From contig JAFVQJ010000015.1 in NCBI GenBank assembly GCA_017504945.1, positions 40,842 to 104,841 on the forward strand: a DNA stretch of 64,000 bases, given 5' to 3'. The stretch comes from Clostridia bacterium (GTDB taxonomy: Bacteria; Bacillota; Clostridia; Oscillospirales; RGIG5299). Numbering within the stretch: position 1 is the stretch's first letter; every line of letters begins with the position of its first letter. This document shows, in pieces, positions 33,986-56,836 of this stretch. The notes below the pieces were generated by a model. That model saw nothing but the letters and a program-made list of their open reading frames with translations, was not told the DNA's origin and searched no databases. Made by a program: the position numbers and the translations under genes.

Positions 33986-34133
33986 ACTTTTGTCCTCCTT
34001 GAAGATTTTGAAATTCAAAAGGGCATATAACCCTCAATCCATATTATGCCACAGCGCAAAAGAGGGTGATAAAAAAGTAATATTTTTCAAAAAGGAAAAT
34101 ATATATTAGTAAAACAGATTGAAGGGTGATAAT

Positions 34134-34634
34134 ATGGTCGTTTTTTCATTTAAAATGACGAAAGCGAAGCTGAGTCTTGCTTTGTTTTGTATAGTCGCGG
34201 TGCTGATTACCGCAACGGCGGTGGCAGACTCGGTTGCAAAAAATTCCGAAACGGTAAAAAGCATGGCAGGAGTTACAAATGAGGACAGAATAACCTTTCT
34301 CACCGGCAAGGGCTGGGAGATAGTTGCAAATCCCGTTGAGATAAGGGAGATAACGGTTCCCAAGGAATTCGATGCCGTTTACACCGAATATAACAATATT
34401 CAGAAAAGCGTGGGCATGGACCTTTCGGCATACAGAGGAAAAACGGTAAAGCGCTACAGCTACGAGGTGATAAATTACCCCGACGGCGATGAAAAGCACG
34501 TTGTGGCAAACCTTATGGTGCTTGAAGGCAAGATAATCGGCGGCGATATATGCAGCACCGCCCTCGACGGCTTTATGCACGGACTTACCGATATAAATTC
34601 GGTTAAAACGGCACTTATGCAAAGACCCGAATAG
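34134..34634 (+). CDS. DUF4830-like membrane-anchored protein
   Basis: An N-terminal TM helix is followed by a GWEI....E..IPKEF..VY..YN..Q-like pattern. The family name is from memory. Confidence 0.5.
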   Translation: MVVFSFKMTKAKLSLALFCIVAVLITATAVADSVAKNSETVKSMAGVTNEDRITFLTGKGWEIVANPVEIREITVPKEFDAVYTEYNNIQKSVGMDLSAYRGKTVKRYSYEVINYPDGDEKHVVANLMVLEGKIIGGDICSTALDGFMHGLTDINSVKTALMQRPE

Positions 34635-34642
34635 CTTTATTT

Positions 34643-34738
34643 CCCCGCCTCAAACGAGGCGGGGAAAAATTTTTTTAAAATATTGTCAGCTTTTTGCCGT
34701 CTTATGCGTTTTATAGGTAGAGGATTAAAAATCCCGAT
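34643..34738 (+). repeat. Direct repeat copy 1 (terminator hairpin + 62-nt conserved element)
   Basis: CCCCGCC..GGCGGGG hairpin, T-run, then AAAATATTGTCAGCTTTTTGCCGTCTTATGCGTTTTATAGGTAGAGGATTAAAAATCCCGAT. The 62-nt core is identical at 38224-38286. Confidence 0.85.
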
Positions 34739-34910
34739 TAAACGGAGTCAAAGCTTTTTATCTGTCGATGTAAATTTCTTGACGAATAGAGGGTGATTTG
34801 CTACAACGGAAACGGGGGAATTTTCCTTAAATTTTTGAAAGGGGTGATTCCAATGGTGCATTTGGAAGAGGAAGAATCATTTCATTTAATATTGAAAGGA
34901 AGAAAAACTT

Positions 34911-37412
34911 ATGAGAAGACTAAAACGATCACTTGTCTTTCTTACGGTAACCGTAATGCTTTGCGGCTCGCTTCTTTCCTTTGCAACGGCTTATGCAAAT
35001 GAAGCCGTAAACGAAACGGAGCCGTTGATTAGCGAGCCGATCACCGACGTTCCGGCAATAGCGAGTGTAGGCGCAAGCGAGATAGAGAGCGGTAAAATTT
35101 ATCGCATAAAAAATGCAAACAGCGGTCTTTATTTGGCATTGCCGGGAAACGATGCAGATCTTTCAAACATAAACCTTGCCGTAAAAGATAATTCTGCATT
35201 AAATCAACAGTTCAAGATAGTTTATGACGAAACCTACGGCTTTTACCGCATCCATACGATGATGAGCTCGTTTGGCACAAACAGAGTGTTGGATATCTTC
35301 AGCAATCCCAATTCGCCGCCCGCAAACGGAAGAAACGTTCACATTTACGTTATTGAAATAATTGAAAATTTCAACTCTTACGGTTGGCAGATAAGTGACG
35401 TTGGCAACGACAAGGTAAAAATTTGCGCCGATTACAACGAATCACTTGCACTCACCGCCGCCGCGGGAGGAACGGCTGCGGGAACCAACGTTTTGGTAAA
35501 TACCTATAGCGGAGCAGAGCATCAGAAATGGATACTTGAAGAGGTAGTAAGCAACGCCGGCACAAACGCAAACGTCTCGTCACTTGTTGACGGCGGAATA
35601 TACAGAATAAAGGATTTTAGCGGAAATTACCTTACGGTAGCACCTAACACCGCCGGAAATTTCGACGTAACACTGAATAACGTTGAGATGCGTCCTGCCG
35701 TGGCACATTTGTGTCAGGAATTCAAGGTAGAGCTGAACCCCGATGGAAGCTACTATATAAGAGCAATGATCTCGAGCAACGGCACGAACAGGCTTATAGA
35801 CGTTTACAGCTCGAATATAGATCAGATAGTAAACGGAGCAAACGTGCATCTGCATCATCCGGGAGATGAAAACTCGAGCCGATGGAAAATAGAGTATATG
35901 TCTGTTGTGCGCTCTTTTTCAATAAAAATCGCCTGCAAGACAAATCTCGGAATGGCAGTTAGCGGCACCAACGTGCAAATGGCGTCCTTCCACGGCGGCT
36001 TGAGCCAGCAGTGGTTCTTCGAGCCGGTATCGTCAATCGTTTTAATCAATAACGCGCCCACAACGTCACTGCTTACCGGAGAAACCCACCAGCTTACAGA
36101 ATACGTCTATCCTCCGCAAGCCGTTACTTGGTCCTCATCAAATACGTCTGCTGTAAAAGTTGACTCCAACGGCTTGGTTTTTGCCGTAGGTGTAGGACAG
36201 GCAATAATAACCGCAACAACTGCTGCAGGCGATTATGACCAAGTAACAATATCAGTGTTACAGCCTCAAATAGTCCAATATTTAGGAATATATAAATTCA
36301 AAACATCAAACGACAAATATTTATATTCGTATATGGACACTTCAGGCAATCCAATTGTTGGACTCAAGGAGCCGTTAATTGATGATTACGGAAATCTTGT
36401 TGAGGATTCAAGCGTATTATGGGCAATAGCGGAGTTAAATAACGGTTATTATTCTGTTATATCTATGAATACTCGCGCGTACGGTTCACCAACGTACGGA
36501 TATAGCGAATATGCTTTACAATATTCCGAAAACGGCACTGTTTCAGTTGGACCGCTTTATTATTACGCCTCGCAACAATGGGATTTAACCCTTGACTTGG
36601 AGTATTGGGAAGTTTGGTTTGAATGCGTAAACAGTATAAACGGTCTTACAGTCGATAGCGACGATACTGTATCAACGGGAGTTTATTCGGAGTGCTTTGA
36701 CGTTGAAGAGTATGTTCCCTCTTGCTATTTTGGCGGAACGTACACCAGAGGATTAACACAAGTAAACGGAGAAAACCATTTAGACGTTGCGATTTTTATA
36801 AGTGAAGATATCCTTAATGGCTTGAATATTTCATATACACCCGTTAGCTATAACTATGCAACCGAAACGGCAACCTTCACGGAAATTCCGTATTATAGCT
36901 TTCTGAAAGAATGGGCTAAATTTACGGATAACCTTACAATTAAGATTTATCCGTATGACCCGGATGACTTAAATGAATATAGTGTATTAAACCCGTTTTT
37001 GTATTTCGATGATTCATTTTTAGTATTTGTTAATAAGAAACAATATCCTGCATATGGAGTTACGTATGGTTACAATTTGCCGTCAACTGCAAAATACTTC
37101 GAACCAAAAGATAGATTAGAAGGTTTGGATGTTAATATTAATGTTGCTGAAATAGTGCTGAATAATGTGTCAACAAATGGTTATAATTACTTCGAATTAT
37201 CGACGGTTGAACAAAAAGCTGTTTTGACACATGAGTTGGGTCACGCCTTGAAATTGAAACACCCAAACGAGGTAAAATCAGAAATAACTAACAAATTGGT
37301 AGATAAACCGTATTTTATTCCCACTTCTGTGATGAATAATCGTTTATTAAAATCCACTTGCATTCTCACTGCACACGACCACTTGACTTTAAAAGCAAAA
37401 TGGGGGATTTAA
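34911..37412 (+). CDS. Secreted multi-lectin protein with a C-terminal metzincin-like zinc metallopeptidase domain
   Basis: A signal peptide is followed by two ricin-B-like beta-trefoil modules with QxW-type motifs (QQFKI, QKWIL, SRWKI, QQWFF). A Big_2-like Ig domain follows (VTWSSSNTSAVKVDSNGLVFAVGVGQAIITATT). The C-terminal domain carries HELGHALKLKH (37230-37262) and a downstream SVM Met-turn-like motif. Composition drops from ~55-58% GC to ~30% GC near 36240, judged from my counts on sample lines. Confidence 0.75.
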   Translation: MRRLKRSLVFLTVTVMLCGSLLSFATAYANEAVNETEPLISEPITDVPAIASVGASEIESGKIYRIKNANSGLYLALPGNDADLSNINLAVKDNSALNQQFKIVYDETYGFYRIHTMMSSFGTNRVLDIFSNPNSPPANGRNVHIYVIEIIENFNSYGWQISDVGNDKVKICADYNESLALTAAAGGTAAGTNVLVNTYSGAEHQKWILEEVVSNAGTNANVSSLVDGGIYRIKDFSGNYLTVAPNTAGNFDVTLNNVEMRPAVAHLCQEFKVELNPDGSYYIRAMISSNGTNRLIDVYSSNIDQIVNGANVHLHHPGDENSSRWKIEYMSVVRSFSIKIACKTNLGMAVSGTNVQMASFHGGLSQQWFFEPVSSIVLINNAPTTSLLTGETHQLTEYVYPPQAVTWSSSNTSAVKVDSNGLVFAVGVGQAIITATTAAGDYDQVTISVLQPQIVQYLGIYKFKTSNDKYLYSYMDTSGNPIVGLKEPLIDDYGNLVEDSSVLWAIAELNNGYYSVISMNTRAYGSPTYGYSEYALQYSENGTVSVGPLYYYASQQWDLTLDLEYWEVWFECVNSINGLTVDSDDTVSTGVYSECFDVEEYVPSCYFGGTYTRGLTQVNGENHLDVAIFISEDILNGLNISYTPVSYNYATETATFTEIPYYSFLKEWAKFTDNLTIKIYPYDPDDLNEYSVLNPFLYFDDSFLVFVNKKQYPAYGVTYGYNLPSTAKYFEPKDRLEGLDVNINVAEIVLNNVSTNGYNYFELSTVEQKAVLTHELGHALKLKHPNEVKSEITNKLVDKPYFIPTSVMNNRLLKSTCILTAHDHLTLKAKWGI

Positions 37413-37414
37413 TT

Positions 37415-52239: not shown

Positions 52240-53514
<1,275 letters not shown>

Positions 53515-53532
53515 AAAAACACCCTGCGGTTT

Positions 53533-53740
53533 GGCGTGATACTCTTATCGGAGTATCACGCCGGTTCTATTCGCCTTTGGCGAGTGATATTGCTACGCAG
53601 TGATATTCGGCTTACGCCGAGTGGTATTCGCTTCGCGAGTTTATGGGCGAATAGAATATCACTGTGAGGCGTAGCCGAACAATATCACTGCCCGCAAGGG
53701 CAATATCACTCTTTGCGAAAGCAAAGAATATCACTCATAG
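53533..53740. repeat. Array of the 9-mer AATATCACT (four copies) and its complement AGTGATATT (three copies, one degenerate), interleaved with small GC hairpins
   Basis: AGTGATATT occurs at 53583 and 53599, with AGTGGTATT at 53620. AATATCACT occurs at 53655, 53681, 53702 and 53727. A perfect 12-bp hairpin GGCGTGATACTC/GAGTATCACGCC with a related motif lies at 53533-53562. Spacers form mini-hairpins: CGGCttacGCCG, GCCCgcaaGGGC, CTTTGCgaaaGCAAAG, CGCCtttGGCG. Confidence 0.85.
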
Positions 53741-53754
53741 ACAACAGAAAAAGA

Positions 53755-53802
53755 GAGAGTCTTACGGAATTTTGCTTCCGCAAGACTCTCCCTTTTGTTT
53801 TA
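53755..53802 (+). terminator. Intrinsic terminator-like hairpin ~240 nt downstream of obg
   Basis: 13-bp stem GAGAGTCTTACGG / CCGCAAGACTCTC with one mismatch, followed by CCTTTTGTTTT. Confidence 0.55.
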
Positions 53803-53911
53803 TCGCCAGTTTCGCATTTGTTTTACAAATGCATCGGGCTGCGCCCATACCCCTATCTTATTTCTCCGATAAGGACATCACCCATTTACCGCAGGGCGTT
53901 TTAAATTCGAA

Positions 53912-54121
53912 TTAGTCCTGTGCCCAGATCTCACCGTTTTTGTTGGTGAACTTCTTGAGGATTATCATAATGAAGTCGACGAGTGCGCCGATGCCGAGGC
54001 AACCGCCGGTGAGGAGCCAGATGATACCGGTTCCGATCTTGCCTGCAAGGAATCTGTGGATTCCGAGACCGCCGAGGAAAAATGAAATGAGGATACCTGC
54101 TACGTAGCTGATTTTGTTCAT
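53912..54121 (-). CDS. TM2 domain-containing small membrane protein
   Basis: Two TM helices with GGLGIHRFLAGKIGTGIIWLLTGG, which matches the TM2 domain pattern. Confidence 0.7.
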   Translation of the reverse strand: MNKISYVAGILISFFLGGLGIHRFLAGKIGTGIIWLLTGGCLGIGALVDFIMIILKKFTNKNGEIWAQD

Positions 54122-56762: not shown

Positions 56763-56836
56763 AGCGGGATTGTGTAAGGGTAGCACGACAGACTCTGACT
56801 CTGTTTGTGAGGGTTCGAATCCTTCTCCCGCTGCCA
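56763..56836 (+). tRNA. tRNA-Gln (anticodon CTG)
   Basis: I folded it by hand. The acceptor stem is AGCGGGA/TCCCGCT and the D-stem is GTGT/GCAC. The anticodon stem ACAGA/TCTGT closes the loop CTCTGAC, giving U33, anticodon CTG and A37. The T-arm is GAGGG-TTCGAAT-CCTTC, the discriminator is G, and CCA is encoded. Confidence 0.85.

Follow-up and report, generated by a model that had tools for sequence, protein, structure and literature searches.

A MITE-like mobile element of the Gut-1 family probably occupies the loop of the obg terminator in a Clostridia bacterium

The DNA analysed here, hereafter the window, is a stretch of 64,000 nucleotides of contig JAFVQJ010000015.1 from a Clostridia bacterium (GenBank assembly GCA_017504945.1), and the element in question lies directly downstream of its obg gene. 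We conclude, with a probability of roughly 0.8, that positions 53533-53884 are a non-autonomous mobile DNA element of 352 bp, similar to a MITE (for miniature inverted-repeat transposable element), that this element belongs to the Gut-1 family of Rfam (RF01706) and that it sits in the loop of the terminator shared by obg and the TM2 gene. An earlier reading of the letters alone (the sequence-only reading) had noticed here a dense array of a 9-mer and proposed either a structured non-coding RNA, an iteron-like protein-binding array or a MITE-like or REP-like element. The MITE-like part of the last proposal is the one supported by our data, namely by an empty site, by terminal inverted repeats and by dispersed relatives. 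Small size without coding capacity, terminal inverted repeats and presence/absence polymorphism, by which MITEs are recognized, are all found in this element. Our results also suggest that Gut-1, supposed to be a small RNA of gut bacteria, belongs at this site at least to a transposable repeat.

Close relatives of the Obg protein of the window were found by a homologue search and their contigs were compared with the window. Three assemblies (L200, L201 and L202) encode an Obg identical to that of the window and have the same gene order, with rplU, prp, rpmA and obg followed by genes for TM2, UDG and an AP endonuclease on the other strand; the gap between obg and TM2 is 43 bp in these assemblies versus 397 bp in the window. 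By megablast they match the window at 98.1-98.8% on both sides while skipping 53533-53884, the aligned pieces overlapping by 2 nt. Where the window has the insertion, the empty assemblies carry an intact bidirectional terminator, CACCCTGCGG-TTTTA-CCGCAGGGTG (the empty-site sequence being ...AAAAAAACACCCTGCGGTTTTACCGCAGGGTGTTTT..., also read as ...TTATTAAAAAAACACCCTGCGGTTTTACCGCAGGGTGTTTTAAATTCG...). The empty site is GG-TTTT-ACC and the filled one GG-TTT[element]TTT-ACC, so that a target duplication, if there is one, would be of 0-2 bp inside the T run. Since the empty-site assemblies skip exactly 53533-53884, this segment is, as judged from the alignments, best read as a 352-bp insertion in the loop of the terminator shared by the convergent obg and TM2 genes. 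In a fourth assembly, L325 (99% Obg), the element is present and the contig breaks off within it, as would be expected of a repeat; the same site is empty in L200, L201 and L202 and filled in the window and in L325. An 8-bp helix (CCCTGCGG/CCGCAGGG), contained in a 15-nt inverted repeat (53516-53530 with 53888-53902, 93%), had been proposed to close the whole region; it exists and closes the fold, but it lies outside the element and is the host terminator stem split by the insertion. Position 53897 of the window is a C, giving an A·C mismatch in the right terminator arm of the filled site, and the equivalent position 3792 of L200 is a T in the perfect stem of the empty site.

Downstream of obg, the element is absent in relatives with 91-92% and 78% Obg identity (L203, L326 and L204), which have other downstream genes; JAZQKU01, to which L203 belongs, carries the element on another contig (L057). 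A conserved regulatory element downstream of obg was rejected, as 80 obg loci from other Clostridia, 407 kb in total, are without it. The parts of the element and of the split terminator are given below.

53513-53532, unstranded: left half of the split obg/TM2 terminator, with an A-run (53513-53519), the stem CACCCTGCGG (53520-53529) and the loop Ts (53530-53532); intact in L200 and L201.
53533-53884, plus strand: inserted element, 352 bp, non-coding, long form; absent in L200-L202, with the same borders in L080 (92.8%) and L107 (89.1%).
53533-53562, plus strand: left terminal inverted repeat, a perfect 12-bp hairpin GGCGTGATACTC TTATCG GAGTATCACGCC, containing the 9-mer-like GTGATACT.
53563-53735, plus strand: conserved core, a Gut-1-like double array of 173 bp, from recurring borders in between-locus comparisons and a 63-sequence alignment.
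53563-53632, plus strand: left array, with GGTTCTATT, hp1 (TCGCC/GGCGA), AGTGATATT at 53583, hp2 GCTACGC, AGTGATATT at 53599, hp3 CGGCTTACGCCG, AGTGGTATT at 53620 and hp4 CGCTTCGCG.
53633-53654, plus strand: asymmetric centre AGTTTATGGGCGAATAG(A), of which GGCGAATAGA is complementary to TCTATTCGCC at 53566-53575.
53655-53735, minus strand: right array, four AATATCACT with the three hairpins GGCGTAGCC, GCCCGCAAGGGC and CTTTGCGAAAGCAAAG between them.
53749-53806, unstranded: internal bidirectional intrinsic terminator, kept in L080, L107, L097, L030, L011 and others.
53814-53846, plus strand: two conserved hairpins of the right module, GCATTTGT-TTT-ACAAATGC (53814-53832) and GGGC-TGC-GCCC (53836-53846).
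53864-53884, minus strand: right terminal inverted repeat, CTCCGATAAGGACATCACCCA.
53885-53902, unstranded: right half of the split terminator, with TTT, the stem ACCGCAGGGCG and a T-run.

The terminal inverted repeats are about 22 bp long, the left end TGGCGTGATACTCTTATCGGAG matching TGGGTGATGTCCTTATCGGAG, the reverse complement of the right end. The left one is doubled back on itself as the perfect 12-bp hairpin of 53533-53562, already noticed in the sequence-only reading and recovered by an inverted-repeat search, and this hairpin is kept at the left end of 14 other copies. Both terminal repeats contain a variant of the 9-mer (GTGATACT and GTGATGTC) which points inward like the arrays. In the core itself, inward-pointing AGTGATATT repeats flank the asymmetric centre, four or five of them on its left side and four on its right. 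The borders of the core recur in the pairwise comparisons between loci, at -85..-88 and +85..+88 from this centre (about 87 bp on the left and 86 bp on the right).

In the window, AGTGATATT starts at 53583 and 53599 with the near-exact copy AGTGGTATT at 53620, and its complement AATATCACT starts at 53655, 53681, 53702 and 53727, successive copies being 26, 21 and 25 nt apart, which confirms the positions and spacings first reported for both halves. The array consists of six exact and one near-exact 9-mers in two inverted halves with small palindromes between them. Six of the eight exact occurrences of AATATCACT in the 64 kb fall within 153 bp, and the 8-mer GTGATATT occurs 9 times versus 1.41 +/- 1.07 in shuffled sequences, none of which reached 9; the array is real and far from chance. 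The loop types had also been described correctly, with GCAA and GAAA in the right half and TTAC and TTC in the left half on the plus strand; read on the AATATCACT strand, the hairpin apexes are GCGTAGC, GCGTAAGC, GCGAAGC, GCGTAGC, CCGCAAGG and GCGAAAGC. The nested pairing of the two halves that had been proposed corresponds to the minimum-free-energy fold of 53512-53906 as a single strand, an outer helix closing the whole, both as RNA (-173.9 kcal/mol, z = -11.3) and as DNA (-94.7 kcal/mol, z = -11.5). A terminator-like hairpin, placed earlier at 53755-53802, is present and followed by a T tract, but its stem (21-nt arms, 90% complementary) lies slightly to the left, at 53749-53796. Open reading frames (ORFs) in the element are limited to some of 40-83 aa, which coincide with the repeats and run across the border. 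The 83-aa ORF at 53664-53915 spans the insertion border and is therefore impossible in the empty-site strains, in agreement with the view that these ORFs are by-products of the repeats.

To find relatives of the array, one genome per species was scanned for three GTGATATT repeats in a row. At least 119 loci matched, almost all of them in gut or rumen Clostridia genomes, and the host groups among the loci listed are Oscillospiraceae, Acutalibacteraceae, Christensenellaceae, Ruminococcus and some Lachnospiraceae. About 70 of these loci have the same motif map, with forward copies and then reverse copies. The element is polar and not a simple palindrome: it starts with a long hairpin, cAGTTnTATTCGCC and four hairpins alternating with AGTGATATT, and continues with AGTT-N4-6-GGCGAATAnA and four AATATCACT separated by three hairpins. 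Single-array relatives, which are the form modelled by Rfam, occur too. Sub-families share this core but differ in the terminal hairpins before it, which are nevertheless related; examples are GAGGCGCACTCC-GTAA-GGAAGTGCGCCTC and GCGAGACTTCTC-TAAGG-GAAGTCTCGC, whose inverted counterparts stand at the right end. Among the loci listed, some genomes are represented by two contigs and some contigs have two copies, and the terminal-repeat sequences were found, among the matches listed, nowhere but at the elements. When 703 ORFs from the 119 loci were clustered all against all, no linked protein family recurred in more than 8 of these loci.

A phage or plasmid origin was rejected. The plasmid set gave no match to the element, and the phage and viral sets gave one weak phage match and, from at least 120 pattern matches, 2 true members among 80 viral contigs, the other examined viral matches being unrelated tandem repeats. 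Family-like arrays are seen in the phage record MT835815.1 (5049-5172) and in the gut viral contigs L210 and L287.

The position of the relatives with respect to host hairpins resembles that found at obg. By blastn, five elements have sharp borders near 53531 and 53887 (L080 with 92.8% identity, L107, L039, L097 and L030), and the flanks of L080, L107, L039 and L097 are unrelated to those of the window. Outside the borders each locus has its own inverted repeat with As before and Ts after, that is, a bidirectional intrinsic terminator cut in two; such split-terminator flanks, with a unique pair of A-run/stem and stem/T-run, are found for about 18 copies. A hairpin of at least 7 bp is present within 55 nt upstream of 61 of the 69 cores versus 16% of the control windows, and in 57 of those 61 it ends 0-3 nt before the core. 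The core lies on the same strand as the gene immediately upstream in 47 cases and on the opposite strand in 16 (about 3.9 standard deviations from an even split), and between co-directional gene pairs the orientations are 24 to 6. Orientation was significantly related neither to the GC skew around the core (35:22, p = 0.11) nor to the coding strand in its neighbourhood (30:27). The orientation data fit an orientation-specific targeting of terminators or a selection for proper termination.

Several variants of this layout were observed. Many short forms (L009, L012, L021, L026, L028, L031, L110 and others) follow a tRNA gene immediately, with the junction ...CCA|GAAAAAA-hairpin-TTTTTTC|AGTTATATT, in which the A-run, the length of the T-run and the C preceding AGTT hardly vary. 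Just beyond the right array, the short forms L012, L028, L031, L112 (two copies) and L009 share a promoter- or leader-like stretch, TCTTGCnnCTCC...TTTTATGCTATAATACACnnAGGCGGTGA...ATG, before unrelated small membrane protein or lipoprotein ORFs, as if terminator, core and promoter were one intergenic cassette. L006, L007, L110 and one more locus have, 25-60 nt past the right array, an ORF for a four-helix bundle that begins with MADSILRDKSKEFAKEI and resembles the '23S rRNA intervening sequence protein'. The single-array relatives L023, L060, L071, L079, L087 and L061 end in AGTTGYGGAATATTCC, and an AT-rich ATTATTAATTATTAATTAATAATTATTAATT stretch follows the array in L071 and L087. The whole unit is tandemly duplicated in L061 and L040, and extra hairpin-forming DNA is nested in the hairpins of the element in L103 (inside hp1) and L107 (inside hp4).

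The sequence-only reading matched the array to no RNA family or repeat class, a statement that does not hold: an Infernal scan (cmscan) with the Rfam models matched Gut-1 on both halves, at 53562-53632 on the plus strand (48.0 bits, E = 1.7e-08) and at 53677-53777 on the minus strand (42.0 bits). The curated gathering score of Gut-1 is 50 bits, and the Rfam scan of the window at the gathering threshold listed no Gut-1 match, both matches being just below this score. Both cover model positions 1-77 of 77 with the three hairpins and the four GUGAWAU repeats, and relatives of the window element exceed the gathering score, namely L080 and L097 (51.3 bits each), L011 (60.3 bits) and L006 (60.5 bits), L080 being an element 92.8% identical to the window copy. 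The seed alignment of Gut-1 has GTGATATT-type members with the same layout, that is, an upstream hairpin, TATATTCGCC, a forward array, a centre GCAGTTT...GCGAATATAATATCAC and a reverse array (PMC2864571); we find this double-array layout in the seed members BAAZ01000095 and BAAZ01025322. Other Rfam families gave chance-level matches only in the window. From these comparisons, the array of the window is assigned to the Gut-1 family. Weinberg et al. (2010) rated Gut-1 as certain RNA on the basis of covariation, from human-gut metagenomes only and with no function assigned (PMC2864571). The GUGAWAU repeats separated by three short hairpins are common to the Gut-1 motif and to the window element. 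However, the Rfam model represents one half-array, on the GUGAUAU strand, as a small RNA of gut metagenomes only, whereas the window element is an inverted pair inside a mobile element of Clostridia genomes bounded by terminal inverted repeats, and the loop rules of its family favour DNA and the strand opposite to that of Rfam.

These loop rules come from the spacers between the 9-mers. The 230 distinct spacer sequences are nearly all perfect palindromes, and their stems hold 1024 pairs of the Watson-Crick type, 8 G·T, 6 A·C and 51 (also given as 45) others; there is no excess of G·T, unlike in typical RNA helices. Choosing the structured strand by G·U versus A·C was rejected, as 8 versus 6 shows no bias. 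The fold of the alignment has many double changes per pair in the spacer hairpins, and the spacers are under selection for pairing. A c[G(N)NA]g apex is found on the AATATCACT strand in 96 of 196 hairpins and on the other strand in 1, these G(N)NA loops being closed by C-G and about half of them being GNA triloops. Mini-hairpins of the type GCGNAGC/GCGNNAGC melt at 70-76 C as DNA, the melting temperature of r(GCGAAAGC) is 39 C and that of the complementary-type GCTTTTGC 33 C (PMC13037366). Since the apexes match this mini-hairpin DNA rule on the AATATCACT strand, the spacer hairpins point to a folded single-stranded DNA more than to an RNA. The structured strand would be the one opposite to that of Rfam, minus for the left array and plus for the right one, and so the one running 5'->3' outward on each side, a symmetry expected of two transposon ends. 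The proposal of a structured non-coding RNA agrees with the Rfam classification, but the hairpins behave more like DNA than like RNA helices.

Covariation is limited to the local hairpins and to the repeat between left end and centre. Position n of TnTATTCGC on the left covaries with that of GCGAATAnA in the centre (A-T 28, T-A 17, C-G 15; one sequence broken), and the two stretches may either pair or stay identical as an inverted repeat; the three variants of n probably follow the sub-families and represent few independent events. Pairing between the left and right arrays as a selected structure was rejected, the spacers of the two halves being generally not mutually complementary. The 9-mer spacing is 16-26 nt without helical phasing, and because of this variation proteins are unlikely to bind cooperatively along a single face of the DNA duplex.

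On the minus strand, the centre of the element reads GTGATATTnTATTCGCC, which contains an extended -10-like TGnTATTnT. In many copies this site is 16-17 nt from a TTGAAA or TTGAAG supplied by the first right-hand hairpin, and the promoter scan of L009 found TTGAAA-16-TGaTATTAT at the centre (10 of 12 positions matched), reading into the left array. Promoters of this kind were recognized in 22 of 71 copies, and a TA...T hexamer is present at the centre in 71 of 71, mostly preceded by TG. The centre of the window copy has a weak extended -10-like site, TGaTATTCT, and the promoter scan of this copy found no promoter-like site on either strand. The predicted minus-strand transcript would be a AAUAUCACU-hairpin array ending at the left hairpin, where the latter is a bidirectional terminator.

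A structured small RNA gene or an RNA element in a 3' untranslated region, as the Rfam entry implies, is the most probable of the alternatives, and we regard it as possible but doubtful. Hairpins and 9-mers would then act in RNA, for example as a platform or a sponge for an RNA-binding protein, and mobility would be incidental or the repeat would be domesticated. The Gut-1 matches here and in the relatives, the rating as certain RNA (PMC2864571), the strong covariation of the stems and the z-score of the RNA fold speak for it, as do the GNRA-type loops on the AATATCACT strand, the orientation tied to the upstream gene (47 versus 16) and the promoter at the centre of copies such as L009, directed toward a bidirectional terminator, promoters of this kind being recognized in 22 of 71 copies. 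However, G·U is not enriched among the non-Watson-Crick positions of the stems, about half of the G..A loops are C-G-closed triloops, very stable in DNA and weak in RNA, and the window copy is without a promoter-like site. Moreover, in the orientation of Rfam the terminator precedes each array rather than following it, and the element is multi-copy and strain-polymorphic. An RNA-mediated (retro-)mobile element which targets intrinsic terminators by hitch-hiking on a reverse transcriptase, like group IIC introns, would account for insertions in or directly after terminator hairpins, for the co-direction with the upstream gene and for the little or no target duplication. We consider it improbable: features of introns or retrons were not found by the Rfam scan, the surroundings of the 119 loci show no enrichment of a reverse transcriptase, the clear terminal inverted repeats are typical of DNA transposons, and the hairpin rules fit DNA and not RNA.

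The least probable explanation, to which we give hardly any weight, is an array in double-stranded DNA bound by a host protein, for instance as iterons, partition site, fork trap or nucleoid site. With its nearly invariant 9-mer present seven to nine times in two inverted sets, the array would suit such a role, and the flanking terminators would exclude RNA polymerase. But the array is absent in near-identical strains and therefore dispensable, many dispersed copies exist, the site is chromosomal and the plasmid set gave no match, the spacing of 16-26 nt is unphased, palindromic spacers whose sequence is free serve no purpose in binding to a duplex, and the GC skew does not switch at 53.6 kb; the host-function reading is largely refuted already. 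What survives of the earlier iteron-like proposal is that the repeats may be binding sites of a transposase, and not a host replication or partition site. A replication terminus or fork trap was likewise rejected, the cumulative GC skew still rising through 53.6 kb.

For the MITE-like mobile element that we favour, the following course may be envisaged. The 9-mers, of which both terminal repeats hold variants, would be repeated binding sites of a transposase supplied in trans, and the spacers would fold into stable mini-hairpins in DNA that is transiently single-stranded, using at each end the strand that points outward in the 5'->3' direction. Such an enzyme would read hairpin DNA in the element as well as in its target, namely the terminator hairpins. 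The built-in terminator and the re-pairing of the split host stem would keep obg and its neighbour terminated, and the insertion would therefore be tolerated. Recognition of the 9-mers and mini-hairpins by a trans-acting enzyme on folded single-stranded DNA is our best inference for the role of the arrays. A wider proposal can be made only tentatively, and we think it rather unlikely in its full extent: the Gut-1 module would be a folded single-stranded DNA platform (9-mers and c[G(N)NA]g mini-hairpins) for an undescribed structure-guided transposition which reads its own and target (terminator) hairpins, and the elements would act as portable terminator or insulator cassettes in gut Clostridia.

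Several observations weigh against the mobile-element reading or complicate it. Neither a transposase nor an autonomous parent element with matching ends was found near the 119 loci, and for this reason transposition itself is inferred; within the 64-kb window the element is present in one copy only. The orientation data argue against a single-strand transposition coupled to the replication fork, of the IS200/IS605 type. The core is found inside elements with different terminal hairpins and also without recognizable terminal repeats, and the arrays may therefore be either a part of what drives transposition or a module carried as cargo. An RNA product from the sigma-70-like centre promoter is possible in some copies, and would be compatible with mobility. 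Finally, L033 has two cores 97.6% identical with unrelated flanks starting exactly at AGTTATATT, and at 2170-2640 a block of terminator hairpin and core stands between two diverged copies of the ppdK 3' end and terminator, whereas the related genomes L328 and L329 (3800-4300 in each) have one ppdK copy and no element. This block seems, from its junctions, to have arrived by recombination with foreign flanking DNA and not by clean transposition. The ppdK site was accordingly rejected as a second clean empty/filled pair for the bare core, its junction being more complex and recombination-like.

Bacterial MITEs and small repeats such as the Correia elements of Neisseria, the pneumococcal BOX, RUP and SPRITE, and ERIC are also small, non-coding, strongly self-complementary, bounded by terminal inverted repeats, intergenic, multi-copy and strain-polymorphic, and BOX, with its repeated sub-units, and SPRITE, with its terminator-like parts, have a similar modular build (PMC10969869). 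The window element differs from them by its arrays of an invariant 9-mer alternating with covarying mini-hairpins of free sequence, by its insertion in the loop of, or directly after, intrinsic terminators, and by a core common to elements with different terminal hairpins. IS1397 and ISKpn1, which insert in the loops of REP/BIME palindromes, and the terminator-seeking group IIC introns have as target a hairpin and not a sequence, as here, but they are autonomous and encode a transposase or a reverse transcriptase, whereas the window element encodes nothing and has no IS3-type or intron features. Folded single-stranded DNA hairpins whose structure rather than sequence is conserved are likewise used by the palindrome-associated elements derived from IS200/IS605 and by the attC sites of integrons. 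In contrast to these, the window element has real terminal inverted repeats and no attC R/L boxes, and the orientation of its family is not linked to GC skew.

Two other features of the window were recorded. Its GC content is 0.38-0.40 at 34000-40000 versus about 0.47 elsewhere, and this part may be a foreign island. Roughly 3 kb past the right end of the element, a plus-strand tRNA gene at 56763-56833 (59.5 bits) is surrounded by ORFs of the minus strand.

Taken together, these data give hosts, the gut and rumen Clostridia, to Gut-1, an orphan small RNA of gut metagenomes in Rfam since 2010, together with a full architecture of inverted double array and asymmetric centre and direct evidence of its movement as, or inside, a mobile element. 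The insertion in a terminator loop is unusual, and it shows how an element with its own bidirectional terminator can spread while gene expression is left intact. For annotation, such loci would no longer be called small RNA genes, and contig breaks would be expected at them in assemblies. A transposase reading the 9-mer and DNA mini-hairpins would be a worthwhile search target, and if the module is truly a platform of folded single-stranded DNA, an orphan 'RNA' family of Rfam would really be a DNA element.

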